Shown here piece by piece: positions 1 through 45,952 of a stretch of DNA of 64,000 nucleotides. Location: NCBI GenBank assembly GCA_963737125.1, contig CAVTRL010000001.1, positions 346,699 to 410,698 of the forward strand, in the 5' to 3' direction. The translations under genes and the position numbers were made by a program. The notes under the pieces are model-generated. The model searched no databases and was not told the DNA's origin. It saw only the letters and a list, made by a program, of their open reading frames with translations. Numbering within the stretch: position 1 is the first letter of the stretch; the number at the start of each line of letters is the position of its first letter. Source of the DNA: an uncultured Chloroflexia bacterium. Its GTDB lineage: Bacteria > Chloroflexota > UBA5177.

Positions 1-1251
1 CAACGATTGGTACGTTGGGTTCCGAAAGTTTACCAGCAGATCTCCATGCGACACGGAGGAGGAAAGTGCCCCTCCGAGGCGTATCCAGGCTGATGGAGAG
101 AGCGTCGTGAGGCGACTCAGTAAGTGACCTGCCACGATGCCAATGAACTGCTTTCCCCGAAGTCTGGCCGGGATCCCCGCACCACCGTTCGGTGCCCAGT
201 GCGCGTAGTAATCAGCTAGCTGACCGACGTTCGCCCCGGATACCTCACGCCTGTACTCAGGTACATACATAGGGCCGGTGGCAGTCAGTATCCGAGAGAC
301 CGCACCGGGTGTCACGTCGACCACATTCGCAACGCTCCGATGAAAGTCCAATCTGTAAAAGAACCGTTCGAGCGCAGCGGTCGTTGGAAAATCCGGTGAC
401 CAGTTGGAGTCTCGAAAAAGCCAGCCAGGTTCGTCGTTGTAATTCTCGACCGGTTCCGGCGGAGGCACCGAGAGATTATCGTCAATGCCGGTGCTCTGAA
501 AGATCTGTTTTGGTTTCCCGTCGTGAATCGTCAATAGACTTGCGCTACCGATAAAGCCACCCGTCGCACGGAGCTCGTTCGAATCCTGGTATGCCAGCAA
601 ATAGGAAGTGGAACCGTGCTCACCCAGGAGTGAGGGCGCAAGCGACAGAGCGCGGCAGAGAATCAGGAGTTGCGGGAGTCGCGTGTCGAGGGAATGAAGA
701 GCGGAGCTCAGGGAAGCCGGCATGCTGCCTCCGGGAATGGCGTGCCGACTGCGTTCGGCATCCCGAAACTGCGTACACGCTCGATCAAACGCTGGGCCAC
801 CTGCTTCCAAGCCACGCACCAGAGTTTGAGAGTTACGCGATCGCGAGGCAGTAGTCCATTCACTCGCAAGCGGCCCGAAGCCATCCAGTAAAGAAAGTGC
901 GCCGTCGGCCGTACTTCGGGCGGCGTGGGCGATGTCTGGGGCCGCGGCCACCTCTACCCCCACCCGAGGGACCCAGCCGAGATGTTTGATTATCGGGGCC
1001 AGGAGGCCGAGCTGGTTGTCGGCGGAGCGAAAGTCTTTTCTCGCGCTGTCGATATCGTTACGCACGGGCGCAAGCGTGAGACGAAGTGACGCGTGGGAGT
1101 GTATCGATTGGAGAGAATTCTGCGCGGAGTGTAATTCGTTTACACCGTTGAGAAGGGATCGACGTGCTGAGACAAGCTCAAAGGCCACAACGGCGAACAC
1201 TACGACACAGAGCAGGGCACCTATGAAGTACAGGAAGCAACCACGATGCAT
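1..1251 (-). CDS. DUF4012 domain-containing membrane-anchored protein, 3' end truncated by the window edge
   Basis: Not in the ORF track because there is no stop in the window. Manual translation gives an open frame from ATG 1251 to base 1: N-terminal TM (CFLYFIGALLCVVVFAVVAF), then YLLAYQDSNELRATGGFIGS and WLFRDSNWSPDFPTTA, which match the motifs I recall for DUF4012. Confidence 0.8.
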   Translation of the reverse strand, partial: MHRGCFLYFIGALLCVVVFAVVAFELVSARRSLLNGVNELHSAQNSLQSIHSHASLRLTLAPVRNDIDSARKDFRSADNQLGLLAPIIKHLGWVPRVGVEVAAAPDIAHAARSTADGALSLLDGFGPLASEWTTASRSRNSQTLVRGLEAGGPAFDRACTQFRDAERSRHAIPGGSMPASLSSALHSLDTRLPQLLILCRALSLAPSLLGEHGSTSYLLAYQDSNELRATGGFIGSASLLTIHDGKPKQIFQSTGIDDNLSVPPPEPVENYNDEPGWLFRDSNWSPDFPTTAALERFFYRLDFHRSVANVVDVTPGAVSRILTATGPMYVPEYRREVSGANVGQLADYYAHWAPNGGAGIPARLRGKQFIGIVAGHLLSRLTTLSPSAWIRLGGALSSSVSHGDLLVNFRNPTYQSL

Positions 1252-1407: not shown

Positions 1408-2226
1408 TCACCACTCGCCTTCGGAAAGGCGGTCAAGCAGCAGCGCGGCTGTGGCAGACGCCTCACCGCGCGGTCCGTGTAGAATTCGGGCTTTGTCAAC
1501 AGCCCTTTCAAGCGTAGCGAGCACGGTCTTGGGCTTACGGCGCAGCGCTGGAGCATGAGCGAGTAGTTGCAGTAGAGCCTCGCCCGCCGACAGGGATTGT
1601 GGATGCCACTGTTTTCCAGGCTCGTACTGTGTCAGAAGGATCGCACCAACCTGCAGCGGTTCATAGCCCAAAAATCCGTCAAAGGCTTCTATCGGTGTTT
1701 TTACCTGGAATATCGACTGCATTTCACGGACTTCCAGCGGTGCGGCGTGCGGATGTATTTTCCCGTGACGGTCGAATACTGCGAATTCGTCGGAATAGTA
1801 AGCAGCCCCCGCTCGAAGCAACTCGGAAACAAGTGTCGTTTTGCCGCTAAAAGTAGTGCCCGGAATGAGGATTGCCTTTTCATTCCACCCCACCACACCC
1901 GCGTGCAGGAAGACTCGATGCTTGGCGCGAATAGCGATAAACAGTTTGAGTTCTGCCTGCAGCACGTGCAGAGCAGTCGGAATATCCGGCCCTTGATAGA
2001 GAACCCGCGTGTTCGCGTATACGCCCACACTGTATTTCCCGATTTGTCGGATTGAGAACAACCGGTCGACGACACTATGCGGATTGTCACTGGACATCCA
2101 GCCATAGGGAAAGTAGTCGGGGAGTTGAGATGCGACTTCTGGGTTATCAGTTCGTATCCCGAGGCGAATGCCGTGTACCTCGCCGACGTGCGTCGTCACC
2201 CATGGAAGACACTGGAGCGATTCCAT
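1408..2226 (-). CDS. HPr kinase-related P-loop protein (putative Ser/Thr peptide kinase)
   Basis: FLHAGVV ... IPGTTFSGKTT (Walker A) ... YYSDEF pattern of HprK C-terminal-like kinases. Start moved to ATG 2226 (MESLQCLPW) so it does not overlap the upstream gene. Confidence 0.8.
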   Translation of the reverse strand: MESLQCLPWVTTHVGEVHGIRLGIRTDNPEVASQLPDYFPYGWMSSDNPHSVVDRLFSIRQIGKYSVGVYANTRVLYQGPDIPTALHVLQAELKLFIAIRAKHRVFLHAGVVGWNEKAILIPGTTFSGKTTLVSELLRAGAAYYSDEFAVFDRHGKIHPHAAPLEVREMQSIFQVKTPIEAFDGFLGYEPLQVGAILLTQYEPGKQWHPQSLSAGEALLQLLAHAPALRRKPKTVLATLERAVDKARILHGPRGEASATAALLLDRLSEGEW

Positions 2227-2272
2227 TCGAGAAGAAGGTCTGCGCAGTCGAGGATAATCGTCTGGATCGCTG

Positions 2273-3838
2273 CTAACCGTGCGGTGACCCTTCACGATTG
2301 ACTCCAGCAAGAACCACTTCGGGCGCCCCATTGAGTAACCGAATGATGTCCGTTGCTCCACCGATTTGGGAAGCGATAGTTCGTGATGCATCGATCACGA
2401 TACCCACAGGTGTAGCATTTACCCCGAAGGAGGCGGCAGTGGCAAACTCTCGATCAAATAAAACCGGTGAGTGCAGGTGCAGGCTTCGTGCTTCTTCTAA
2501 CAATCCGCTGGCGATTACAACGAGCCTGGGAGCGCCAGGTGGCGGCATAGAATCCCACCGATGAAGATCCTCTGTCATGCCACGGCAATAAACACATGTC
2601 GAGCTCCAGAAGAGTACAAGGGTCTCGCCCACCAGGAGATCCGACAGCTGAACCAGATTGCCCTCCAGGTCAGGTAGTTCCAACGCCGGAGCTGGTTGTC
2701 CAAGAAATGAATCCTTTATGATTTCGCGATGCTGCGCTTCAAACTTCAGGCCCGCGAGCTGAACGGCATTCGGCTGGTAGTCGCTTGGTTGCACCATGGT
2801 CAGCACTTCGTTCAAAAGCCAACGTACTTCCTCCGCTCCGCCGCCGACTGGACTTCCGATTGTGCCGTCAGGGCGAATAAGAACGGCTGCGGGAGTACCT
2901 GGGACCTCGAACTCCGTCTCGATACTACGGTCCTCCGCAAAGAGCACTCGTTCCAAACCATGGCTGGAACGCTTCTCTTCGGCGATTTCCAAAGTGCTGC
3001 CACTACTGATCACTACAAGTTCGACATCTCTGCCGTGATCCCGTTGCCAGTGCCCGATTTCTGGCATAAGTGCATTGCAAGGCTCACAGTTGGGTGACGT
3101 GAATAAAAGCAGTAACGGCTTTCCAATACCGTACAGGTCTTGAAGTGAAACGATATGCCCTTCTGTATCCGGGAGCGAGAAGGAGGGAGCTATCGTGCCG
3201 GGTGGGAGGCCGTACCGCGCTGCACTTATCGCTGATCCGGCGACTTCCGGTCTATCAGCACGTAGATCGGACTCAATCATCTTGATGCGCAATAAAATTT
3301 GCTTATTTTGCTGAATAAGCTCACGCAAGAAAGCAAGTGCGACCAACAGAAGACCGGAACCGGCAGCAGCCGCTAGCACGGCAATCCACTCTCCAGCGCT
3401 CAGTAGGGCCAAGCGGTGAAAGGCAGCAGGATCGTGGTTGATGTTTCCCTGTGCCAGTATGAACACCGCCGCCGCGGCAAGCACTCCATTTCGTACCAGG
3501 GTGGCTGGTCCAATCGGCTCCGAGTGTAACTGGCCGAAGCAGTGGCAGTCAGGGGCATCCCCACGCGCCAAACTTACGGTAATGCCGGCGTCAAACGCTA
3601 CGAGTAGAGCTAGCGCACCAAATGCGCCCCACCACGCGAGAGCGCCCGGGAGCAAAAGAGCGACCACCACGATTTCCAGAAGTGGAAGACAAAATGCCAC
3701 AGGCCCGACTAGCGGCCCCGGCAATCTGAAGCTTCTTACCGCCTCACGTGTCCCGGATCGATCCGTCAGCTTACCGTAAGCGGCCAGCGCAAAAACCCCG
3801 GCCAAAACCAGCCGGAGCGCTAGGACAATCAACGACAC
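2273..3838 (-). CDS. MauE/DoxX membrane domain fused to two thioredoxin-like (AhpC/TSA-TlpA) domains
   Basis: N-terminal TM helices with the MauE-type DCHCFG...TLVRN motif; two APxFxLPDxxG redoxin starts with CxxC motifs CEPC and CVYC. Confidence 0.85.
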   Translation of the reverse strand: MSLIVLALRLVLAGVFALAAYGKLTDRSGTREAVRSFRLPGPLVGPVAFCLPLLEIVVVALLLPGALAWWGAFGALALLVAFDAGITVSLARGDAPDCHCFGQLHSEPIGPATLVRNGVLAAAAVFILAQGNINHDPAAFHRLALLSAGEWIAVLAAAAGSGLLLVALAFLRELIQQNKQILLRIKMIESDLRADRPEVAGSAISAARYGLPPGTIAPSFSLPDTEGHIVSLQDLYGIGKPLLLLFTSPNCEPCNALMPEIGHWQRDHGRDVELVVISSGSTLEIAEEKRSSHGLERVLFAEDRSIETEFEVPGTPAAVLIRPDGTIGSPVGGGAEEVRWLLNEVLTMVQPSDYQPNAVQLAGLKFEAQHREIIKDSFLGQPAPALELPDLEGNLVQLSDLLVGETLVLFWSSTCVYCRGMTEDLHRWDSMPPPGAPRLVVIASGLLEEARSLHLHSPVLFDREFATAASFGVNATPVGIVIDASRTIASQIGGATDIIRLLNGAPEVVLAGVNREGSPHG

Positions 3839-4048
3839 GGTGGCCGTTCCTCTCTGTCAGGCCCCACCACGACTCACTGGCAGAACGAACCATGAGTCGG
3901 CTGCAACGACTCGACGCACCCCACACGTCTTCTCATTGTGCTGGCAATCGGCGCGCTGGACTTGTGTACCTACGTGGCACGTAGCTTCGCACCGGCCATG
4001 CTTGTACGGCAATGTCGTCAATTACATGCGCACTCGCGTAACCCGCGG

Positions 4049-4684
4049 TCAGCACATAGCGGCGCATGGCGTCCAACCCTGACCTTTAGGGCCGGGGCAG
4101 CACTTAACTCCCGTAGACATACTATTAATTTGACAGCAATGTCCTGAGCCATCGTCTTGCTGACTGCCACTACAACTCGAGCAGACGCCGCATTGGGTCT
4201 TGCCGTTCCATACAACGCAGCACCCGCAGTGTTCTTTGTTTCCCCCACACCCCAGCTGTGAAGGGGAGCAGACGGGAGGTGGTGACGACCAAGCAAACCC
4301 GGTGGTTGGCAAGCTAATAGCGGTAATCATAGGAAGAGCCACTGCTGCGGCAACACCAGTGCGACGCATCAAGTCCCGTCGAGACATTACGTCATCGACG
4401 CGATCGGCAGCATTGTCAAGCAAGCCGTCCTTGTCCAATTGCTTGATTGCGGCATTGACGGTATTTTCGTTCACTGCCGCACCATTTGAGTCACGGATCA
4501 AGTGCACCATATACGCGACAGACGTCCGGCCGTCGCTCAACTGCCAGACCTGTCCCGCAATCTCGTTTAGACAGAAGGCTTTATCCTGTTGACGGTCAAA
4601 AACCAAGATCTCTCTGTCTAACTCACGGACCACCAGGCCGGTGGATCTTGCTCGAGGTCTGAACTCTTTGGAAACTCTTCCCAT
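4049..4684 (-). CDS. PqqD/RRE-domain protein fused to a Tat-type leader and a Cys-rich C-terminal peptide (RiPP-like precursor)
   Basis: ATG 4684 preceded by GGGAG. LVVRELDREILVFD...AFCLNEIAGQVWQLSDGRTSV is a PqqD signature. It is followed by MSRRDLMRRTGVAAAVALPMITAISLPTTGFA and an 80-aa tail with 14 Cys. Confidence 0.85.
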   Translation of the reverse strand: MGRVSKEFRPRARSTGLVVRELDREILVFDRQQDKAFCLNEIAGQVWQLSDGRTSVAYMVHLIRDSNGAAVNENTVNAAIKQLDKDGLLDNAADRVDDVMSRRDLMRRTGVAAAVALPMITAISLPTTGFAWSSPPPVCSPSQLGCGGNKEHCGCCVVWNGKTQCGVCSSCSGSQQDDGSGHCCQINSMSTGVKCCPGPKGQGWTPCAAMC

Positions 4685-4771
4685 CGTTCGGTGCTCCCCC
4701 CTGACGCTCGCATGCACAGCGTTCGACGTCACCAACACGAACACTTGTACACGGTGCCGTCTTCAGAGCTT

Positions 4772-4800
4772 ACTCTACATAGTCTTGCGGTGACTGTCAA
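4772..4800 (-). promoter_or_regulatory. Sigma70-type promoter for the PqqD/MauE/HprK operon
   Basis: Minus strand TTGACA-N17-TAGAGT, about 90 bp upstream of ATG 4684. Confidence 0.6.
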
Positions 4801-5441: not shown

Positions 5442-7070
5442 TTGAAACTTAGCCTCTACCTTTATACTGGCCGTCGCTGGGCGCTATGGTCGGTGGTGCC
5501 GGCAGTCCTCGTCGCTCTGGCTAGTTATTTCTACACAGCACACGAGCCGAAAGTGTACCAGACATCCGCGACGCTGTATGTTCAGGAGCCGGATACCGGC
5601 GGGGGCGTACCGGGCGGCACCGACATTTATACCAGCGAAGCGCTAATCCCCACGTACAGTGAGATGATCAGCCTGCCGGTTATCGCCGTTGACGTGGACA
5701 AGGCTCTAGCCAAGAAGTACCCTGGATATCGCCTGGAAAACCACAACTTGACCGCAGGCGGACTCGGTTCTCTGCCGTCGGCCAGTGCCAGTACTCAACT
5801 CATGACCGTGACGGTAACCGATACTAATCCTGTCCGGGCTGCCGCGGCAGCCAATGCCGCGTCTTCCGCCTTTATCACACAGCAGGAAGCCCTTCAGAAA
5901 TCGCGGTTCCAGGGCGGCGAAAAGGCGATCCAGCAACAACTCAACGTGGCGCAATCAAACATTCAGATCGTTTCGCAGCGACTCACCAATTACCGGGGCT
6001 CGCCCGGAGGCCTGAGCAACTTAAAGGCACAGCTCAGTGCGTATCAAAGCATTTACGCAACCCTGCTCGGATCGGCTCAAGAATTCAGCGTGGGGCGTGA
6101 TACTGCCTTGCACGCGCTCAAGATCGTCTCACCCGCTTCAATTCCCACGACCCCGATCGCACCCAACCCGTCACGCACTGCGCTGATCTATGGGTTCTTC
6201 GCTTTGGTCTTGGCAGCCGGCGGCCTCTTCGCATTTGACTATCTGGACGATACGCCGCGTACCCCGGAGGAGATTGAAGAGATCGTTGGAGCGCAAATCC
6301 TTGGAACGGTGCAGCAGTTTGACCAGAGTAAGTACGGGGCGGGGTTGGTCTCCATCAAAAAGGGCGACTTCCCAGCGGCCGAGGCTTACCGCGTCATACG
6401 CACCAACCTTCAATTTGCCAACGTCGACCATCCGCCACGTTCCTTGGTGGTCACCAGCGCGTTTCCCGGTGAGGGGAAGAGTACGACCGCGAGTAACCTG
6501 GCGACGGTATTCGCGCAGGCCGGCACACATGTTTCGTTGGTGGATGGTGACCTTCGACGACCCAACTTGCATAAGCTTTTCAAGGTGAATCGTGGTGAGG
6601 GCCTCACGAATCTGCTCATTTCAGCAGGCGCTCTGAACGGTCATGGACCCTGGCAATCGGTGTCACCGAATCTCGACCTCATCGTATCTGGCCCACTGCC
6701 ACCTCGACCAGCAGATCTTCTGAGCTCCGCACGGATGAAGGATGTAACGGCTCACCTATCGGAAGGCGCCGGGATGCTGATCATCGACTCGCCTCCCGTG
6801 CTTGCTGTCACCGACGCGGTGATCCTGTCAACCATAGTCGACGGTGTGATACTGGTAGTCGATACGAGCCGAAGTAAGAGAAGTGACCTTCGACGTGCCC
6901 GAGAAGCAATTGAAGGCGTCGGAGGCAAAATCGTGGGGATTGTCGTCAACCGGCTGAAGGAGCGCGGCGGCGGATATTACTATCACTATTATCAACGCCA
7001 TTACGGCTACGCGGAGTCGTACGACTTCAACCCGGCTACCGAAAAGTCGCTGACCGAAACGAAAGTGTAG
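5442..7070 (+). CDS. Polysaccharide co-polymerase / BY tyrosine autokinase (Wzc/CpsCD-type), copy 1
   Basis: Wzz-like N-terminus with two TMs; AEAYRVIRTNL; Walker A GEGKSTT; VDGDLRRP; LIIDSPP; Tyr-rich tail GGGYYYHYYQRHYGY. TTG start. Confidence 0.9.
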   Translation: MKLSLYLYTGRRWALWSVVPAVLVALASYFYTAHEPKVYQTSATLYVQEPDTGGGVPGGTDIYTSEALIPTYSEMISLPVIAVDVDKALAKKYPGYRLENHNLTAGGLGSLPSASASTQLMTVTVTDTNPVRAAAAANAASSAFITQQEALQKSRFQGGEKAIQQQLNVAQSNIQIVSQRLTNYRGSPGGLSNLKAQLSAYQSIYATLLGSAQEFSVGRDTALHALKIVSPASIPTTPIAPNPSRTALIYGFFALVLAAGGLFAFDYLDDTPRTPEEIEEIVGAQILGTVQQFDQSKYGAGLVSIKKGDFPAAEAYRVIRTNLQFANVDHPPRSLVVTSAFPGEGKSTTASNLATVFAQAGTHVSLVDGDLRRPNLHKLFKVNRGEGLTNLLISAGALNGHGPWQSVSPNLDLIVSGPLPPRPADLLSSARMKDVTAHLSEGAGMLIIDSPPVLAVTDAVILSTIVDGVILVVDTSRSKRSDLRRAREAIEGVGGKIVGIVVNRLKERGGGYYYHYYQRHYGYAESYDFNPATEKSLTETKV

Positions 7071-7231: not shown

Positions 7232-7651
7232 TTACGTGGAGAGACGCCGCCGAATGCCGGCCATGAGCAGGTAGCCGCATAGTACTCCGAGGGTGTTCGT
7301 GAGCACATCGGTGGTGGATGCAGTTCTGCCGAGGGGAAAAACGTATTGCGCGGTTTCTATGGCACTTGACAGGGCCGTTCCCGCTGGAATCATTCTTCGT
7401 GGATCGTCCAGTGCCGGCACCGCCAGTGGCACGAAGAAGCCGAAGGGCACATACAGTGCCACATTCCCTCCAAGCTGGATCATGAACCATCGAGCAAGCT
7501 GATCGGCCGGAAGGGTAGTCTGCAAATCGCGGAATGGGACCAGGTTCAGTACGTGGCTCGTATGCCCAAAGGGGAACAAGCCCACGCCGAGAATCAGGAA
7601 CAAGGCGGCTGCCGCACGGGTCCGGTTCACCCGTATTACGTTACGCTCCAC
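7232..7651 (-). CDS. VanZ family membrane protein
   Basis: NLVPF...GNVALYVPFG...SSAIETAQY...GRTASTTDVLTNTLG is the typical VanZ pattern. Confidence 0.75.
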   Translation of the reverse strand: MERNVIRVNRTRAAAALFLILGVGLFPFGHTSHVLNLVPFRDLQTTLPADQLARWFMIQLGGNVALYVPFGFFVPLAVPALDDPRRMIPAGTALSSAIETAQYVFPLGRTASTTDVLTNTLGVLCGYLLMAGIRRRLST

Positions 7652-8350: not shown

Positions 8351-10048
8351 TTGAACATCGGTTTGTACCTGTATCAAATCCGACGCTGGGTTTCCTTCGC
8401 GATATTTCCCGCCGTTGTCGTAATGGGATTGGTGTATCTCTACGAACACCATGTGCCCAGGACCTATCAAACAAGCGCTTTACTCTACGTGCAGGATCCC
8501 GGCAACTCGACTCAACCGGGTGGAACCGATGTGCAGACGAGTCAGGCGCTCATCCCGACCTACAGCCAGATATTCGTGTCACCGGCCATCACCTCCGCCG
8601 TGGATGCAACTCTGGCGAAAACGTACCGGGGATACCGGATTGAGGCGCATGATCTGAAGGTTCAGGGAGTCACGACAACGCCATCCGCGCCCCTAAACAC
8701 CCAGCTTATGTCGGTTAGCGTCACCGACACGATCCCGCAACGCGCTGCGGTTGCCGCGAATACAGCGGCCAGAGCGTTTATTCGCAAGATTACCGCGATC
8801 GAAAAACAGCGGTTCAAGGGTGGGGCACGGGCGGTCGAGCAACAGCTCGCGGTCGAGAACAATAACATTCAACTCGTGTCGCGCGAGATCACGAATTACA
8901 AGGGCAGTGGCGCCGGTCTGAATAATCTCAAAGCTGAGTTGAACGCAAATCAAACCATTTATGCGACGCTCCTCACGTCATCGCAGGACTTCAACCTGGC
9001 GAGGAGCACCGCGGCCAGCGCCGTAAAGCTCATTTCTCCGGCCCCAGTTCCCACTGCAGTAGTTGGTCCGCATCCTATCCGCATCTCGGCGCTCGCGGGA
9101 TTCATAGCCCTCATACTCGGTCTGGGTCTACTGTTCCTCTACGATTACTTCGACGATACGCCCCGCACGCCGGAGCAAATCGAAGCGCTCCTGGGGGCAC
9201 CGATTTTGGGAACGGTGCAGCAGTTCGACCGAAAGCGATATGAGACCGAGTTGATCACCGCTCGACGCGCGCGATCTCCGGTATCCGAAGCGTATCGGGT
9301 GATCCGCACGAACATCCGGTTCACCGATATCGACCACCCACCGCGCACGCTCGTGATCACCAGTGCATCACCGGCGGAAGGTAAATCCACCACGGCAGCG
9401 AATCTCGCGAACGTGTTCGCCGAGGACGACAAGCGCGTCACCTTGATTGATGCAGACTTACGACGTCCCAGCTTGCATCGGATCTTCCAGGCGGAGCGCG
9501 GTGAAGGGCTGACCAACATGCTGACGAGTACCGAGGCGCTGAACGGCCATCACGGAACAAAGCAAGGGGACCGGTCCAACCTCGAACTCATTGCTTCCGG
9601 GCCCCTACCACCCCGCCCAGCCACCCTTCTGGGCTCCGATCGTATGCGCGAACTAACGCAGCACTTTGCCAATGACGCGCAAATCCTGTTGATCGACTCC
9701 CCCCCGGTGCTAGCAGTGGCCGACGCCGCGATACTGTCCACCGTCGCGGACGGAGTCCTTATGGTCGTCGATCCGGCGAAAAGTAAGAAGCGAGACCTGC
9801 GCCGCGCCCGAGAAGCGATTGAAGCCGTGGGAGGCCGTATCATCGGCATTGTCATCAATCGATTGAACAAGCGGGGCAGCAGCTACTACTACTACTATTA
9901 CCACCACAATTACGGATATCAGTATAACTACCAGTACCTCGCGCAAAAGGACAAAGTCACAGCGCTTGAAGCCGACGAAAACAGTGGCGAGATGAGCGTC
10001 CCGGCCCTATCTGGCGATTCCAGGATCGATCCAAAGGATTCGTTGTGA
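8351..10048 (+). CDS. Polysaccharide co-polymerase / BY tyrosine autokinase (Wzc/CpsCD-type), copy 2
   Basis: Collinear with 5442-7070; SEAYRVIRTNI, AEGKSTT, IDADLRRP, LLIDSPP; tail SSYYYYYYHHNYGYQYNYQY. TTG start. Confidence 0.9.
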   Translation: MNIGLYLYQIRRWVSFAIFPAVVVMGLVYLYEHHVPRTYQTSALLYVQDPGNSTQPGGTDVQTSQALIPTYSQIFVSPAITSAVDATLAKTYRGYRIEAHDLKVQGVTTTPSAPLNTQLMSVSVTDTIPQRAAVAANTAARAFIRKITAIEKQRFKGGARAVEQQLAVENNNIQLVSREITNYKGSGAGLNNLKAELNANQTIYATLLTSSQDFNLARSTAASAVKLISPAPVPTAVVGPHPIRISALAGFIALILGLGLLFLYDYFDDTPRTPEQIEALLGAPILGTVQQFDRKRYETELITARRARSPVSEAYRVIRTNIRFTDIDHPPRTLVITSASPAEGKSTTAANLANVFAEDDKRVTLIDADLRRPSLHRIFQAERGEGLTNMLTSTEALNGHHGTKQGDRSNLELIASGPLPPRPATLLGSDRMRELTQHFANDAQILLIDSPPVLAVADAAILSTVADGVLMVVDPAKSKKRDLRRAREAIEAVGGRIIGIVINRLNKRGSSYYYYYYHHNYGYQYNYQYLAQKDKVTALEADENSGEMSVPALSGDSRIDPKDSL

Positions 10049-10121: not shown

Positions 10122-10853
10122 ATGATATCGCCGTTAGCCGTTGTGGAATCGGACGAAATAGGCACCGGAGTTACAGTCGGTGAGTTCGCTATCGTTCGTC
10201 GAGGCGCGAGAATTGACGACAATGTCGTGGTACATCCGCATTCAATCATCGAGAGCGGGGTGGTTGTGGGCGAGGGTGCGGAAATTTTCCCTGGTGCGTA
10301 CATTGGTAAGGAACCGAAGACCACCGGAGCCCTGGCCCGACCTCTAACCTTTCAAAAACGGGTTTCGATCGGGCGCTGGGTCCATGTCGGACCGCATGCC
10401 GTGATCTACTACGACGTCGAGATTGGTGATCTATCGCTGATCGGTGATGGAGCATCTATCAGAGAACAGAGCAGAATTGGTTCGTCTTGCGTCATAGGTC
10501 GCAACTGTACCATCAACTACGCCGTTGTAATTGGGAATCGTGTGAAGGTAATGGACCTCACGTGGCTTGCAGGCAATATGACAATTGGAAACGACGTTTT
10601 CATTTCGGGTGGCGTTCTGACCGCGAACGATAACTCATTTGACCGTTTTGGCTACGACGGTACGTCCGTAGTCGGTCCCCAAATCAAAGATGGGGCAATG
10701 ATCGGCGTGGGTGCCACACTCCTACCCGCCGTGGTGATCCATGAAAAGGCCATAGTAGGAGCTGGCTCAGTGGTGACCAGGGATGTCGCCGCTCACACGC
10801 TTGTCAATGGTATTCCGGCTCGATTTGTGCGAATGCTGGTGACGGACTCTTGA
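10122..10853 (+). CDS. Left-handed beta-helix N-acyltransferase (nucleotide-sugar, QdtC/FdtC-like context)
   Basis: Continuous hexapeptide repeats; IVGAGSVVTRDV...NGIPAR C-terminus; adjacent to a DegT-family gene. Confidence 0.85.
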   Translation: MISPLAVVESDEIGTGVTVGEFAIVRRGARIDDNVVVHPHSIIESGVVVGEGAEIFPGAYIGKEPKTTGALARPLTFQKRVSIGRWVHVGPHAVIYYDVEIGDLSLIGDGASIREQSRIGSSCVIGRNCTINYAVVIGNRVKVMDLTWLAGNMTIGNDVFISGGVLTANDNSFDRFGYDGTSVVGPQIKDGAMIGVGATLLPAVVIHEKAIVGAGSVVTRDVAAHTLVNGIPARFVRMLVTDS

Positions 10854-10927
10854 CTGGTCAACGAGATAGGGAAAGACATCATACGCCTCGGTCAGCACGG
10901 GGAGATTAGCCGATTCCAACCGGCAGG

Positions 10928-12100
10928 GTGAGCGAACGCATGTCGACGACTCCAACCGTTCCCTTCCTCGACCTGCAAGCTCCGTATAACGAGTTGCGCT
11001 CGCAGATCGATGCGGCCATGAGTCGGGTGCTGCGCAGCGGTTGGTACTTACTTGCAAGCGAGCTTTCCGTCTTCGAAGACGCGTATGCCCGCTACACCGG
11101 GGCAAAGTACTGCGTCGGGGTCGCCAATGGCCTGGATGCGCTGACGCTTTCCCTACTCGCGATGGATATTGGCGCCGGCGACGAGGTCATCGTTCCCAGC
11201 AATACGTACATCGCAACGTGGCTGGCAGTAACCCGCGCCGGCGCAACTCCGGTACCGGTCGAACCGGACGAAGCCACCTACAACCTGGATCCACGAGCGA
11301 TAGAAGCGGCGATCACCGAGCGCACAGCCGCAATTCTGCCTGTACACCTGTACGGCCAGCCGGCGGATATCGACCCGATTATCAACCTCGCACGACGACA
11401 CGGCCTCAAAGTGCTGGACGATGCGGCGCAAGCACACGGTGCGCGCTATAAGGACCTGCCTATTGGCGCTCTGACCGATGCAACCGCGTGGAGTTTCTAT
11501 CCCGGTAAGAACCTGGGCGCAGTAGGAGATGCCGGCGCCGTTACCACGAACGACGATGCGCTGGCCGACCGCCTGCGCGTACTGCGCAACTATGGGTCAC
11601 GCGTCAAATACGTCAACGAGGTCCTGGGATACAATAGTCGGCTCGACGAGGTGCAGGCGGCCGTTCTGACAGTGAAGCTCGACTTCCTGGCTGAGTGGAA
11701 TGGCAGACGGCGCGCTATCGCCGATCGTTACCTGGAGGGCCTGCGCGACACCCCGCTTGGTCTTCCCCAGATACCGACGTGGGTGCAACCCGCCTGGCAC
11801 GTCTTCGTCATTCGCTCCCCCGGCCGCGATGAACTGCAACGGTATCTGCGCGACTGCGGAGTTCAAACGCTCATTCATTATCCGGTTCCTCCGCACCTGC
11901 AGGAAGCATATGCGCCACTCGGATTGCGCCGGGGAAGCTTTCCGATCAGTGAATTGATGCATCGAGAGGTACTCAGCTTGCCCATCGGACCGCACATGAC
12001 GTCCGAACAGGCCGATACCGTGATCGACTCGGTATGCGGCTGGTTCGCCGGCGCACCGGCACCGGCCGGCAGTGGCAACTGCCGCTCGGCGACCTCATGA
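10928..12100 (+). CDS. DegT/DnrJ/EryC1/StrS PLP aminotransferase (FdtB/QdtB-like)
   Basis: [38 protein letters not shown] (PLP Lys), [22 protein letters not shown]. Confidence 0.9.
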
Positions 12101-12741
12101 TGAACGCTGGACTCCGGTCAGAGATGCTGAGAAAGACCCGGCACGTCATCCGGCGTCCAATTCTGCTCTATGCGCCATGGCTCCGATTCGTTTCTCCACT
12201 GCGGCGTCTGCGGCTCCTTGCACAGGTCAAGATCAACGGAGCGTCGGTTTTCTGCGCTGAGGATGTAGTCTTTCAGCACCCGGTGGAATTTCAGGGAGCA
12301 GGTCGGTTGATCCTTAGCGGAGGTGCTCAGCTCGGTTACCGTGGAGCGGGCCACATACGAACGCCGATATTGTTGCAACCACGCGATGCCGGCTCCGAAA
12401 TCAGGATCGGCCGGAAGAGCGCTGTGATGAACGGCTCCGAGCTCATCGCGCGAACCTCGATATCGATCGGTCAAGACTGCTTGATTGGTCCCGGCACCGT
12501 CATCATCGATGCTGATTTTCATGGTATCGCTCCCGATGCTCGACTTGAGCCAGGCTTAACGCTCCCGGTGGTGATTGGTGACAACGTCTTTGTCGGAACT
12601 GGAGCGATGATCTTGAAGGGCGTACAAGTCGGATCGGATGCCGTGATCGCAGCGGGTTGCGTGGTGTCGAAGGATGTGCCTGCCGGTGCCAAAGTCGCGG
12701 GTAACCCCATGAAGATCATTGGATCCGTATACCCGGATTGA
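12097..12741 (+). CDS. Hexapeptide-repeat O-acyltransferase (maltose/galactoside acetyltransferase family)
   Basis: IIDADFHG...[11 protein letters not shown]...[13 protein letters not shown]...VAGNP. ATG 12097 overlaps the upstream TGA (ATGA). Confidence 0.8.
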
Positions 12742-42526: not shown

Positions 42527-43516
42527 CTACCGGGATCGCTCCGCGCGTCCTCGTACTGCATAGCGCACCGCCCGTTCTACATCCTCCACCTGAGGAATAA
42601 GCGCTTCCATCAACGGCGGGCTGTGAGGGATAGGAGCGTGATCGGCGCCAACCCGCAGCACGGGACCGTCCAGGAAATCGAAGACCGCTTCCTGGGCCGA
42701 TGCTGCCACTTCGGAGGCGATGCTTCCATTGCGTGGCGCTTCGCCCGCTACGATCAGCCGGTTAGTCTTTCGTACCGACGCCTCAACAGTATCCAGATCG
42801 AGGGGGAACGGCGTCCGTAAATCGATGACTTCGATCTCGATGCCCTGCTCCGCCAGGTTTTCGGCGGCCTTCAGTGCCTTGCTGACCATGATGGCGTACG
42901 CCGCCACGGTGGCGTCCTTGCCCTCGCGCACGACCGCCGCACGCCCGAAGGGAACCAGGTCGTCCGGTCCCCCAACCGGTCCTCGGGCCGCCGTCAGCAT
43001 CTTGTGCATCAAGAAAATTACCGGGTCATCGCCTCGAAGCGCCGATTTGATGAGGCCCTTGGTGTCCGCCGGTGTGGCCGGTGTGGCGACGAGCAGTCCC
43101 GGCATGTGCGAGAACCAGGCCTCCAGGCTGTTGTTGTGCTGAGCGGCTCCGAAGGCAACGCCGGCGGTTCCACGGATCACCAGGGGAGCCGGGGCTCCCC
43201 ACATATAGCGCACTTTAGCCGCCTGGTTGATAACCTCGTCCATGCCGCCGAAGACGAAGTCGATAAAATTGAGGTCGACGATGGGACGCATACCGTTCAG
43301 CGCGGCGCCTACACCGGCTGCCAGCATGGCCGCTTCCGAGATCGGGGCATCCCGGATTCGCTCCGGGCCGAACTCCGCTCCAAGGCCCTTGACCTGAGCC
43401 CAGTGACCACCTCGCTCGTACAAATCCGTGCCCATCACAAAGATCGTTGGGTCGCGCTTCATCTCTTCGCTCACGCCTTGTTGGAAGGCCTGCGAAAGGG
43501 TTGCAGGAGCGATCAT
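42527..43516 (-). CDS. TPP-dependent 2-oxoacid/acetoin dehydrogenase E1 beta subunit
   Basis: MKRDPTIFVMGTD, RIRDAPISEA, GMRPIVDLNFIDF, NQAAK, AAQHNNSLE, EVIDLR, PVLRVG. Confidence 0.93.
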   Translation of the reverse strand: MIAPATLSQAFQQGVSEEMKRDPTIFVMGTDLYERGGHWAQVKGLGAEFGPERIRDAPISEAAMLAAGVGAALNGMRPIVDLNFIDFVFGGMDEVINQAAKVRYMWGAPAPLVIRGTAGVAFGAAQHNNSLEAWFSHMPGLLVATPATPADTKGLIKSALRGDDPVIFLMHKMLTAARGPVGGPDDLVPFGRAAVVREGKDATVAAYAIMVSKALKAAENLAEQGIEIEVIDLRTPFPLDLDTVEASVRKTNRLIVAGEAPRNGSIASEVAASAQEAVFDFLDGPVLRVGADHAPIPHSPPLMEALIPQVEDVERAVRYAVRGRAERSR

Positions 43517-44976
43517 ATATTTCTCCTGACGTGGGTTTCCAATCCTGTTACGTTGTCGAGGGCCGTGGAAGGATCCGGCCAGGGAGACTTCTCGGCGAAG
43601 TCGATTGCATCCTGTACGACGGCCTGAATGCGTTGGTTCAGCTCAGTGAACTGCGTCTCGTCGAGCATATCTTTGCTCGCCAGTGTGTGCTGAAGACGAG
43701 CGATCGGGTCTTTGGTGCGACGCCACATCTCGACCTCATCCTGTTTCCGGTACGTTCCTCGGTCGCCGGTGTTATGTCCCTGATAGCGGTACGTGAGCCC
43801 CTCGATGAACGTGGGGCCTTCCCCGCGTCGGGCTCGGTCGCGTGCGTCGGAGACGGCGCGGTACACGGCTGCTACGTCCTGGCCATCCACTTGAATCGCC
43901 GGCAAACCAAATCCGGCTGCTCGGCGGGCAATACTGTCACCGGCCATGGCCCGACCCACGTACGTTTCCACGGCGTACAGATTGTTCTCGCAGAAGATGA
44001 TGAGAGGCAGTTTCCAGAGAGCTGCAAGATTGATGGATTCCCAGATGCGTCCGGTGTTCGCCCCTCCGTCGCCAAAGAATCCCAACGCGACCTGGTCGAG
44101 TCCACGCATCTTGGCGGCAAGCGAGGCGCCCATCGCGATGCCGAGACCGCCGCCGACTATGCCGTTGGAGCCAAAGAGGCCAATCGAGAAGTCGGCCAGA
44201 TGCATGTGCCCCGCGCGGCCGCCCCGGCCACCCGTGGCCTTGCCGTAGAGCTCCGCCATGATCGAGCGCGGTGTGAGCCCTTTGGCCAGGCTGTGATGGT
44301 GACTTCGATGGCTGCTCGTCACGATATCGGTGGGAGCAAGGGCGCGGATCGCTCCGACCGCGGTCGCCTCTTGCCCGGCGGCGGAGTGCATTCCCCCGGG
44401 TATCTTGCCCGCGTAGGCCAGCGGGTCTGAAGCATTTTCGAACTCTCGAATCAATACCATGGCCTCGAGCCACTCCACCAGCGTGTCCCGACCGATGCCT
44501 TCGACGTCGATCTCGAGGAGAGTATCTGTCTCCTCGTGTTTCAATAGCACCGGTTCGTAGTGTGCTGGGATACCCTGGGCTACGGGTTGTGCTCCATCGT
44601 CGCGCACCATTTCCGGGGGCAGATCGATTGGCTCGACGGACGGGAGCTTCTGGCCGTGCCCTGCATCCACGTATGCGGACTCCGGAACGAGATCGGCCAC
44701 TGCGTCCGCCGACGAGCCGTTAGTCGACCCGTCCGAGGCACCATCCTCGAGGACGCGGACCAGTACGGCGCCGGTGGGCACCATATTCCCCGGTTCGAAC
44801 AGATGCGGCCCCAAATGACCGGCGCGAGGGCTCTCAACTTCGACGTTTGACTTATCGGTCTCGATTTCGGCGACTGCTTCGCCAGCCTCGACGGGATCGC
44901 CTGAATCCTTGAGCCAGCGCAGCAGGAGGCCTTCCGTCATAGCCATTCCCAGCGCCGGCATCACAATGTCTTCCAT
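43513..44976 (-). CDS. Lipoyl domain fused to TPP-dependent dehydrogenase E1 alpha subunit
   Basis: MPALGMAMTEG...EIETDKSNVE (lipoyl Lys), acidic linker, then IREFE, HSAAGQEA, SHRSH, NGIVGGG, FFGDGG, FCENNLYA, TYRYQGH. Confidence 0.92.
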   Translation of the reverse strand: MEDIVMPALGMAMTEGLLLRWLKDSGDPVEAGEAVAEIETDKSNVEVESPRAGHLGPHLFEPGNMVPTGAVLVRVLEDGASDGSTNGSSADAVADLVPESAYVDAGHGQKLPSVEPIDLPPEMVRDDGAQPVAQGIPAHYEPVLLKHEETDTLLEIDVEGIGRDTLVEWLEAMVLIREFENASDPLAYAGKIPGGMHSAAGQEATAVGAIRALAPTDIVTSSHRSHHHSLAKGLTPRSIMAELYGKATGGRGGRAGHMHLADFSIGLFGSNGIVGGGLGIAMGASLAAKMRGLDQVALGFFGDGGANTGRIWESINLAALWKLPLIIFCENNLYAVETYVGRAMAGDSIARRAAGFGLPAIQVDGQDVAAVYRAVSDARDRARRGEGPTFIEGLTYRYQGHNTGDRGTYRKQDEVEMWRRTKDPIARLQHTLASKDMLDETQFTELNQRIQAVVQDAIDFAEKSPWPDPSTALDNVTGLETHVRRNI

Positions 44977-44983
44977 GATTTCC

Positions 44984-45952
44984 TTACCTTCTCGATAATC
45001 GCAAGCTCGCCAGGAACACCGTTGCGAGCAAAATAATCCCATACGAGATCTGGACATCGGCGCTGCCCAGTCCGAACAGCGGCAGGATGGCGGCGACCAG
45101 CGTGAGAATCAAAGCACCGGCGACCGTACCGACATAATGGCCTTCACCTCCCAGGATCGAAGCGCCGCCAACGGCGACCGCAACCGCCGCCGAGAACAGA
45201 TATTGATCCCCCATCGTGAGAAATGCCTGGCCGGTGTACCCCATGACGAGTAGCCCGGAGAGCGCGGCGCCCACCGCCGAAATGACATAGGGAACCACCA
45301 GAATGCGCTTGACCGGAACTCCCGCCAGGTAGGCGGCGCTGCGATTAGTCCCGATGGCGTAAAGCTGTCGGCCAAAGGTCGTCCAGGAGAGTAAAGCCAG
45401 TCCAATCACGATCACGACGATCCAGACGATGATGTCATTCGGTATGCCAAGCGTGCTTCCCACCACGAAATTGATCAGCGCGCTTGGCGGTGACGATGAA
45501 AAGCCTCCACCGGTGTAGACCAGCAGCAGTCCCTGCAGCGCGCCATTGGTCCCTAACGTCATGATGATGGGTGGCACTCCCGCATAGGCGATGCCGATGC
45601 CGTTGAAGAGGCCGACGCCGACTGCCAGTACCAACACCAACACAATCGCTCCGGGAAGCTTGGATGACTCTCCTCCGGCAATGATCGAAGTGAGTACCGC
45701 GGAGCCGGTGAGAGTCCATGGAACGGATAGATCTATGCCGCCGGTCAGAATACACATGGTCTGACCGAGCCCGGCGATCCCGATGAAGGAGCTGTACACG
45801 ATGATGTCGCGGATGTGGCTCTGGCTCGCGAAATCCGCTGAATGCACCGTGCCGGCGACGAAGAGCACCAGTACGACGAGGTAGCTCAACAGGATTGCGC
45901 TGTTTCGTCGGGCGTATTGGCCGAATCCACGGCTGTGCGTTGATAACTGCAT
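44984..45952 (-). CDS. Sugar ABC permease (RbsC-type)
   Basis: GQTMCILTGGIDLSV, FGRQLYAIGTN, AVAVAVGGASILGG. Confidence 0.9.
   Translation of the reverse strand: MQLSTHSRGFGQYARRNSAILLSYLVVLVLFVAGTVHSADFASQSHIRDIIVYSSFIGIAGLGQTMCILTGGIDLSVPWTLTGSAVLTSIIAGGESSKLPGAIVLVLVLAVGVGLFNGIGIAYAGVPPIIMTLGTNGALQGLLLVYTGGGFSSSPPSALINFVVGSTLGIPNDIIVWIVVIVIGLALLSWTTFGRQLYAIGTNRSAAYLAGVPVKRILVVPYVISAVGAALSGLLVMGYTGQAFLTMGDQYLFSAAVAVAVGGASILGGEGHYVGTVAGALILTLVAAILPLFGLGSADVQISYGIILLATVFLASLRLSRR

Follow-up and report, generated by a model that had tools for sequence, protein, structure and literature searches.

A three-gene unit of an uncultured Chloroflexia bacterium may make a secreted, disulfide-rich peptide whose precursor carries its own recognition domain and a twin-arginine signal

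What do three adjoining minus-strand genes, lodged among exopolysaccharide genes of an uncultured Chloroflexia bacterium, produce? The genes lie within positions 1408-4800 of a 64-kb stretch (contig CAVTRL010000001.1, positions 346,699 to 410,698), called here the window. Their order is P-B-K, where P denotes the A-type gene, which encodes a PqqD-like recognition element (RRE) of peptides made by the ribosome and modified after translation (RiPPs) fused to a twin-arginine signal and a Cys-rich tail, B denotes the gene for a MauE domain followed by two thioredoxin domains, and K denotes the HprK-related kinase gene; in other genomes a fourth gene, N, encoding an NTP_transf_5 protein, joins them. 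Our answer, to which we give an even chance, is that the three genes form a RiPP-like unit that makes, matures (probably by phosphorylation in the cytoplasm) and exports a small, disulfide-knotted peptide. We are more confident of a secreted, disulfide-rich product than of the answer as a whole; modification of this peptide by the kinase we propose only tentatively. An earlier note on this DNA had described three minus-strand open reading frames (ORFs), and all three are present where it placed them, with the domains that it named. The features of the unit are the following.

4772-4800, minus strand: promoter-like site TTGACA-17-TAGAGT, 5′ of gene A, 10 of 12 consensus matches
4049-4684, minus strand: gene A (P), 211 residues, RRE/PqqD domain, twin-arginine signal and Cys-rich core
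4409-4657, minus strand: RRE/PqqD domain of gene A, residues 10-92, three strands and then three helices
4292-4384, minus strand: internal twin-arginine signal, residues 101-131, SRRDLMRRTG, 20 hydrophobic residues that include the invariant prolines and then G-F-A at the predicted cleavage site
4286-4288, minus strand: codon of Ser133, two residues past the predicted signal-peptidase site, candidate phosphate acceptor
4052-4291, minus strand: Cys-rich core, residues 132-211, 80 residues with 14 Cys, 11 Ser, 3 Thr and 3 Trp
2273-3838, minus strand: gene B, 521 residues, membrane thiol-disulfide oxidoreductase with a MauE domain and then two thioredoxin-fold domains
3452-3838, minus strand: MauE domain of gene B, residues 1-129 (PF07291, 95.9 bits against a cut-off of 27, 3e-27)
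2858-3199, minus strand: thioredoxin-fold domain 1, residues 214-327, C251-E-P-C254, ResA/MauD-like (ResA structures, E 1e-10)
2369-2701, minus strand: thioredoxin-fold domain 2, residues 380-490, C415-V-Y-C418 (domain-library and structure matches)
1408-2226, minus strand: gene C (K), 272 residues, HprK-related P-loop kinase, with the P-loop PGTTFSGKTT at 1834-1863

The ORF of gene A spans 4049-4744 and stays open up to a GTG at 4744. We take the ATG at 4684 as its likely start, because a strong ribosome-binding site, GGGGGGAG, lies 9 nucleotides (nt) upstream and the homologues start at the equivalent Met. The N-terminal part, which had been read as a PqqD/RRE domain, matches PqqD (PF05402) with 24.4 bits against a cut-off of 23.4 (residues 46-109 of the 231-residue form), and ScmD, lasso PqqD and PqqD models more weakly. 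An AlphaFold2 (AF2) model computed from 16 family members reaches a pLDDT of 89-95 over residues 11-90, and Foldseek places it closest, among PDB structures, to the lasso RRE TbiB1 (5v1u; E 9e-5, TM score 0.72-0.74, r.m.s.d. 2.6 Å), with further matches to the RRE domains of TruD, LynD, ThcOx, PqqD, lasso B1 (6jx3) and CteB. The predicted model therefore supports an RRE fold at the N-terminus of gene A, the absence of which had been named as a refutation. It gives no confident docking of residues 94-134 onto the RRE domain, and its confidence is low for the signal region and the Cys-rich tail. The proposed twin-arginine leader consists of an SRR motif, a hydrophobic stretch and an AxA-type site, and is kept across the family described below; it scores 16.2 bits against TAT_signal (TIGR01409, cut-off 16.7) and is internal, beginning at residue 101 behind the folded domain and not at the N-terminus. 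For the 80-residue tail, a fresh count gave exactly the numbers of Cys, Ser, Thr and Trp reported before. The Cys-rich core has no relative in Pfam or the PDB, the sole result of the PDB search being weak and Cys-driven.

Gene A belongs to a very large family. A word-indexed search retrieved 17 relatives, all of which have a PqqD domain, a conserved segment of the form SRRDL.RR.G...P.......AP.AA.A and, behind it, tails that are unrelated and mostly rich in Cys. When 1.84 billion cluster representatives (clusters at 50% identity) were searched with a profile, 10,885 matched at E≤1e-3; the stricter limits of 1e-10 and 1e-30 left 6,097 and 2,272. The 43 best, inspected individually, showed identical architecture in every case. 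Family statistics were drawn from 218 aligned members, which include all of the best 150 profile matches, and from the 216 tails that could be delimited. In the signal segment S/T101 is kept in 88% of the members, R102 in 100%, R103 in 98%, K/R107 in 91%, G110 in 90%, P118 in 100%, P126 in 99%, A129 in 62% and A131 in 93%, the last two occupying positions -3 and -1 of the AxA-type site. All 218 members have a hydroxyl residue at profile position 133, Ser in 79% and Thr in 21%; the columns of the RRE domain hold no invariant Ser or Thr.

The tails have a median length of 51 residues and contain 14.5% Cys, compared with 1.5% in the leaders. Their Cys count is even in 94% of the 216 cases, with modes at 6, 8, 10, 12 and 14, and 96 of the 216 have the knottin-like spacing C-C-CC-C-C; shuffled tails had it in 28 cases on average and in 38 at most. 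Tail identity is 31% where the leaders share 63% identity and 54% where the leaders share 85%. The tails thus diverge far faster than the leaders, as had been anticipated when hypervariability of the Cys-rich tail was put forward as a check. On these alignments, a conserved leader followed by a hypervariable core is the pattern of ribosomal peptide precursors, here with an unusually long leader. The window copy is one member of this family, unusual for its missing N and for a core that is among the largest. Where family members are named at all in their source databases, they are called 'hypothetical' or PqqD. A metagenome scan with the three closest A proteins brought up only three loci, all distant, and nothing closely related to the window cassette.

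Some members depart from this plan. In some (L002:6703-11124; P0012, P0014, P0292), as read from the sequence only, the PqqD domain and twin-arginine leader are fused to a Hint-like domain of the intein/hedgehog type, which replaces the Cys-rich tail or comes after it; L002 has four such leader-Hint-like paralogues of about 315 residues in tandem, adjoining an ABC exporter. Elsewhere (L001:6448-8675, L090:4249-6654 and L091:4-5904) two or three PqqD-Tat-Cys-rich paralogues with differing tails stand in tandem, with no kinase within 6-8 kb.

If the core is exported, the product of gene B would oxidize it. The gene starts at GTG 3838, behind the ribosome-binding site GAGAGGAA. A MauE membrane domain with two CxxC thioredoxin domains had been described, and all three are there: PF07291 far above its cut-off, C251-EP-C and C415-VY-C, the thioredoxin domains giving AhpC-TSA/Redoxin, MauD-like (1e-14) and ResA-like matches. 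Within the MauE domain a CXC motif, C98-H-C100 (nt 3539-3547), lies between membrane helices 3 and 4 and is kept in all nine cassette homologues, and a fifth helix spans about residues 152-170. Recent work shows that MauE replaces DsbB in Escherichia coli, the CXC motif, its reported active site, lying within a periplasmic loop between helices 3 and 4 and quinone probably being used, and presents MauE as a general disulfide-forming protein that is not specific to methylamine metabolism (bioRxiv 10.64898/2026.03.05.709764). By analogy, given five helices and a CXC loop on the outside, the thioredoxin domains of gene B would be predicted to face outward. The precedent on which the earlier note had drawn, maturation by MauE and MauD in the methylamine system, stands in part: the MauE domain is complete and has its CXC, but MauE is now reported to be a general DsbB-like oxidase and the closest relatives of B stand alone. 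B belongs to a broad family (more than 772 matches at E≤1e-10), whose named members come mostly from Chloroflexota-type metagenome-assembled genomes (MAGs), Rubrobacter and Myxococcales. The window B shares 35-40% identity with acidobacterial cassette copies and 42-45% with stand-alone copies; being no closer to the former than to the latter, it suggests that recruitment of B to the cassette may have occurred more than once.

Gene C lies in an ORF of 1408-2391 for which the source annotation sets the start at 2331; an alignment with 19 homologues places it at ATG 2226. Residues 79-223 of the ORF match HprK_rel_A (TIGR04352) with E 4.9e-14 and 52.1 bits, against a cut-off of 200. The motifs PGxxFSGKT and YYSDE are invariant in 20 kinase homologues. 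The AF2 model of gene C (pLDDT 89.5) is related by Foldseek to ATP-dependent phosphoenolpyruvate carboxykinase (PEPCK; E 5e-5) and to the C-terminal domain of HprK/P (TM score 0.50-0.59), one P-loop fold being common to both. The designation as an HprK-related kinase thus holds for the P-loop and, in the predicted model, for the HprK/PEPCK fold; it does not extend to membership of TIGR04352, and by its sequence gene C is a related family. Six of the kinase homologues (P0019, P0033, P0080, P0106, P0115 and P0131) carry a precomputed match to PF27840.

In the protein collection the kinase family numbers more than 440 members, and among species-representative genomes it has more than 516 confirmed matches. 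We fetched 80 kinase loci from different species of at least four phyla, annotated them with purpose-built hidden Markov models (HMMs), and counted linkage in the 60 where the kinase is flanked by 3 kb or more on either side. The fetched loci are mostly from Acidobacteriota (Blastocatellia, Pyrinomonadaceae), with others from Gemmatimonadota, Methylomirabilis and one Actinomycetes MAG. P is present in 38 of the 60 loci, no more than 500 nt from K in 32, and N (NTP_transf_5, PF14907) in 56. The commonest order is K-P-N, with P between K and N, and it occurs in four phyla; in the kinase homologue P0049 the gene call even runs through into the P gene. Full-length B is found in eight of the 60 loci (nine of the 80 fetched), always adjoining K and always together with P and N, in the orders N-B-K-P or P-N-B-K. 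The tails of P are longer and richer in Cys where B is present (medians 69 residues and 10 Cys) than where it is not (30 residues and 6 Cys; Mann-Whitney p = 4e-4 and 4e-3, not corrected for phylogenetic relatedness), and the window tail of 80 residues and 14 Cys continues the trend of the B loci.

The co-occurrence of the trio across genomes, for which the earlier note had called, is therefore real but incomplete: P accompanies the kinase in 38 loci and the full set with B in eight, and the link between kinase and peptide is not obligate. Its surmise that similar gene trios exist in other genomes was right, since the combination recurs in other species. The usual cassette has N as its fourth gene and the window does not: N is absent from all six frames of the 64 kb, both in a search with an HMM built from 71 homologues and in phmmer and tblastn searches with the L095 protein, which comes from the locus described next.

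A second kind of linkage concerns the surroundings. The window unit is flanked by a minus-strand DUF4012 gene that runs off the window start (1-1251) and by two paralogous Wzz/GNVR/BY-kinase genes; beyond it are a VanZ gene between these paralogues, hexapeptide transferases and a DegT aminotransferase.

1-1251 (minus strand), 5442-7070 (plus strand), 7232-7651 (minus strand), 8351-10048 (plus strand) and 10122-12741 (plus strand): exopolysaccharide-locus features around the unit

A relative of the window's organism (L095:375-5358, JGI Ga0683577_0049675) has B-K-N directly upstream of a Wzz/BY-kinase gene, a further instance of B beside K. Its Wzz/BY-kinase is 78% identical to that at 5442-7070, whereas its B and K share only 45% and 41% with those of the window, and its cassette lies on the opposite strand relative to Wzz. 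Since Wzz is orthologous while the cassette is far more diverged, reoriented and equipped with N, the cassette behaves as a variable element, apparently one that changes fast or has been replaced, next to a polysaccharide gene that is conserved. In Acidobacteriota the cassettes adjoin Wzy_C and PrsT-like TPR genes, and Pyrinomonadaceae have a conserved block of FecR-like, Wzy_C, TPR, FecR-like, TPR, K and N genes (L012, L013, L016, L018, L021, L025, L027, L034 and others). In some Pyrinomonadaceae a PqqD-Tat gene stands between K and N, while in others it is lacking and the gap between K and N is only 3-300 nt. The linkage to exopolysaccharide loci thus recurs in three settings.

The analysis shows which domains the genes encode, how they are conserved and how they are linked; from this we infer a scheme for the biochemical steps, the phosphate acceptor, the cleavage, the dependence on Tat and the biological role. 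Translation of gene A would give a precursor whose leader, about 131 residues long, contains a cis-acting RRE and then the twin-arginine signal. In the cytoplasm the RRE would recruit or position the HprK-related kinase, which may phosphorylate the precursor, most plausibly at Ser133, at the junction of leader and core. Ser/Thr133 is the best candidate because it is the only invariant hydroxyl in the family and neither export nor signal peptidase requires it. In most relatives NTP_transf_5 might then extend the phosphate, as in phosphoglycosylated lasso peptides, and the window version would stop at phosphorylation. The twin-arginine signal would move the 80-residue core across the membrane while the RRE remains cytoplasmic, and signal peptidase I would cleave after the AxA-type site. 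B, as a DsbB-like quinone-linked oxidase with two DsbA/ResA-like domains, would finally form and shuffle up to seven disulfides. The peptide's site of action is probably extracellular, and the repeated exopolysaccharide linkage is suggestive of a matrix or cell-surface function. A more specific version of the scheme would make this a new class of ribosomal peptide, in which K and then N decorate Ser/Thr133 of a precursor with a cis-RRE and twin-arginine leader, the cis-RRE delays Tat export meanwhile, and the MauE-Trx protein knots the exported core; we regard this version as somewhat more doubtful than phosphorylation of the peptide in itself.

A number of observations weigh against the scheme. 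A twin-arginine signal behind a folded domain of 100 residues is atypical. The known lasso kinases need a C-terminal Ser, but the window core ends in Cys and only 12 of the 216 family tails end in Ser. The kinase falls far below the TIGR04352 cut-off, a profile search of PDB sequences found no relative of it, and its gene has no clear ribosome-binding site ahead of it. P is missing within 10 kb in 22 of the 60 kinase loci, mostly K-N pairs of Pyrinomonadaceae, and in the seven contexts that were retrieved by way of P no kinase lies within 6-8 kb. B is mostly stand-alone, as seen in five non-cassette homologue contexts, and looks general-purpose. Finally, a positive-inside count of Lys and Arg over the five helices puts the CXC loop and both thioredoxin domains on the positive, normally cytoplasmic side; we do not rely on that topology because it conflicts with the published functional data on MauE.

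Several of these points would be expected if gene A encoded a secreted or surface Cys-rich protein with an odd N-terminal chaperone domain in the cytoplasm, which is oxidized by B but receives no RiPP-type modification, while K and N act elsewhere. The two enzymes could then phosphorylate or nucleotidylate a sugar, a lipid carrier or another protein of the exopolysaccharide pathway. This explanation accommodates the K-N pairs without P in conserved loci with Wzy_C O-antigen-ligase-like, TPR and FecR-like genes, the P genes that often have no kinase nearby, and the position of the unit between the DUF4012 and Wzz/BY-kinase genes, with the L095 cassette abutting the orthologous Wzz; the kinase fold, moreover, is common to PEPCK, a small-molecule enzyme. 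It does not explain why P should sit exactly between K and N in the commonest order, in four phyla, nor why Ser/Thr133 should be invariant when export and cleavage do not need it. Besides, an RRE is a peptide-binding module, and K, N and an RRE together are the tailoring set of lasso peptides. We consider this explanation unlikely, though it remains the most serious competitor of a modified, secreted peptide.

Less probable again is that gene A encodes an uncleaved, single-pass signalling protein that regulates exopolysaccharide, with the PqqD-like domain as substrate or partner of the kinase, much as HPr is, and a Cys-knot sensor or ligand outside the cell. A cytoplasmic domain, one hydrophobic helix and a variable outside domain do resemble anti-sigma and sensor proteins, the 'signal' is internal and not N-terminal, the cassette is linked to exopolysaccharide loci, and FecR-like genes are conserved neighbours in Acidobacteriota. 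A mere membrane anchor sits badly, however, with the near-invariant RR in a Tat-like context (S-R-R, any residue, two hydrophobic residues, K/R) and with the small residues at -3 and -1; the short, hypervariable tails with even numbers of Cys resemble secreted products; the RRE domain offers the kinase no invariant Ser or Thr; and the window unit has no sigma factor or DNA-binding partner.

Nor do the cysteines look like ligands. A tail that picks up a metal or iron-sulfur cluster before leaving the cytoplasm, already folded, would suit the Tat route, which typically carries cofactor-loaded proteins, and in the core segment CGVCSSC there is a weak resemblance to a CXXC zinc finger (E 0.12). 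Against this stand the lack of any ligand motif conserved across the A family, the predominance of even Cys counts, the excess of knottin-like spacing over shuffled tails and the linkage to a disulfide-forming enzyme, and we hold it to be very improbable. PqqD and an HprK-like kinase do occur in lasso clusters, and MauE and MauD in mau clusters (PMC8498205; PMC7794033), but descent of the unit from a decayed lasso-peptide cluster or a remnant of methylamine dehydrogenase (MADH) maturation deserves next to no credence and both variants were rejected, the defining genes (cyclase, B2 peptidase, mauA, mauB and mauG-like) being missing from the flanking ORFs scanned, while all three genes are intact, their arrangement is conserved in many species and the tail is dissimilar to any solved protein, the MADH light chain included.

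The preferred reading, a precursor that is modified, exported and oxidized by one unit, gains little from transcription signals. The near-consensus promoter ahead of gene A that had been noted does exist, and its location is compatible with a transcript start ahead of ATG 4684; but four promoter-like sites were found in the 5.6 kb scanned, where 2.3 are expected in shuffled sequence, and since such sites are only about twice as frequent as in shuffled sequence, this one is weak evidence alone. Another site inside gene A, 5′ of the core-coding part (4326-4353, minus strand, TTGCCG-16-TATGAT, 9 of 12 matches), is probably a chance match. The intergenic region between A and B folds no better than shuffled sequence (z = -0.65), and it therefore has no attenuator-type hairpin; a terminator scan gave matches at chance level. 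Rfam had no match in the window, and PADLOC found no defence system. Domain scans of the unit and its flanking ORFs bear out the statement that no gene for a lasso cyclase, B2 peptidase, radical SAM, YcaO or LanM protein is adjacent. Far from the unit, at 43513-45057 on the minus strand, the window contains a gene for an E1 component of a 2-oxoacid dehydrogenase with an N-terminal lipoyl/biotinyl-attachment domain, an order unusual for E1 subunits.

Should the reading hold, the thousands of hypervariable cores would amount to an untapped pool of secreted cystine-knot peptides, linked to exopolysaccharide or matrix in soil phyla, and Acidobacteriota and other soil bacteria would become a new source of stable disulfide-rich peptides. 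The maturation logic, which would combine the precursor's own recognition domain, the Tat route, lasso-type tailoring by K and N, and a DsbB-like oxidase, would be new to the named RiPP classes, and the recently proposed MauE disulfide pathway would gain a concrete client. The position beside exopolysaccharide genes offers a testable link to biofilm or cell-surface biology. We found no description of this cassette or its peptide family in the literature.

How does the unit compare with systems that are known? Its product shares with knottins the six-Cys spacing found in nearly half of the family tails, but the 14-Cys tail of the window does not fit the simple C-C-CC-C-C pattern, its structure model is of low confidence, and a bacterial origin and such a leader are foreign to known knottins. 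Gene B has the architecture of the VKOR-thioredoxin and DsbB/DsbA-type fusions, in which a membrane quinone-linked thiol oxidase is followed, after its fifth helix, by thioredoxin-fold domains; here the membrane family is MauE/DoxX-like, and there are two thioredoxin domains, or three or four in relatives. The HPr-rel-A system, noted beside exopolysaccharide loci, is close in its pairing of a kinase (TIGR04352) with a PqqD-like protein (TIGR04353), and TIGR04352 is the best NCBIfam match of gene C. The score of gene C, however, is a quarter of that required, gene A has no TIGR04353 match at E≤0.1, and to our knowledge the PqqD protein of HPr-rel-A has not been described with a Tat signal and a Cys-rich tail.

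In the mau system MauE and MauD take part in maturing the Tat-exported, disulfide-rich small subunit of MADH. The unit resembles it in combining MauE with MauD/ResA-like domains and in the presumed client of B, which is small, rich in Cys and equipped with a Tat signal. The mau system differs in that MauE and two thioredoxin domains are fused here and the client is dissimilar to MauA, and no mauA, mauB or mauG was found among the flanking genes scanned. Also comparable are three Streptomyces candidate RiPP families proposed by decRiPPter, in which mauE, and once mauD, stands beside precursors with at least 8 Cys (PMC7794033). These too pair a MauE-type gene with a Cys-rich predicted precursor, are proposed to be RiPP-like and are uncharacterized, but their precursors are 46-66 residues long with short plain leaders and neither PqqD domain nor twin-arginine signal, and no kinase was reported (PMC7794033).

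The tailoring of lasso peptides such as paeninodin, pseudomycoidin and the bsf product provides another close parallel. There, linear lasso precursors are phosphorylated on their C-terminal Ser by homologues of HPr kinase, and in pseudomycoidin a nucleotidyltransferase decorates this phosphate with hexoses (PMC8498205); the bsf lasso cluster combines K and N with a discrete RRE (PMC10368454). The RRE/PqqD domain, the HprK-related kinase and, in 56 of the 60 homologous loci, the NTP_transf_5-type enzyme are thus shared. Unlike in lasso clusters, the RRE is here fused to the precursor, export would follow the twin-arginine route instead of an ABC exporter, the cores of the A family are Cys-rich, 22-200 residues long and without a conserved C-terminal Ser, and the window has no N. 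Neither an asparagine-synthetase-like cyclase nor a transglutaminase-like peptidase is present in the three genes or the flanking ORFs scanned (1-17.8 kb), and lacking a cyclase, a B2 peptidase and a C-terminal Ser, the unit falls outside the lasso peptides. On our reading it is a case of RiPP-like, leader-guided maturation that has its K, N and RRE parts in common with lasso tailoring, N being absent from the window, and that fits no named class.

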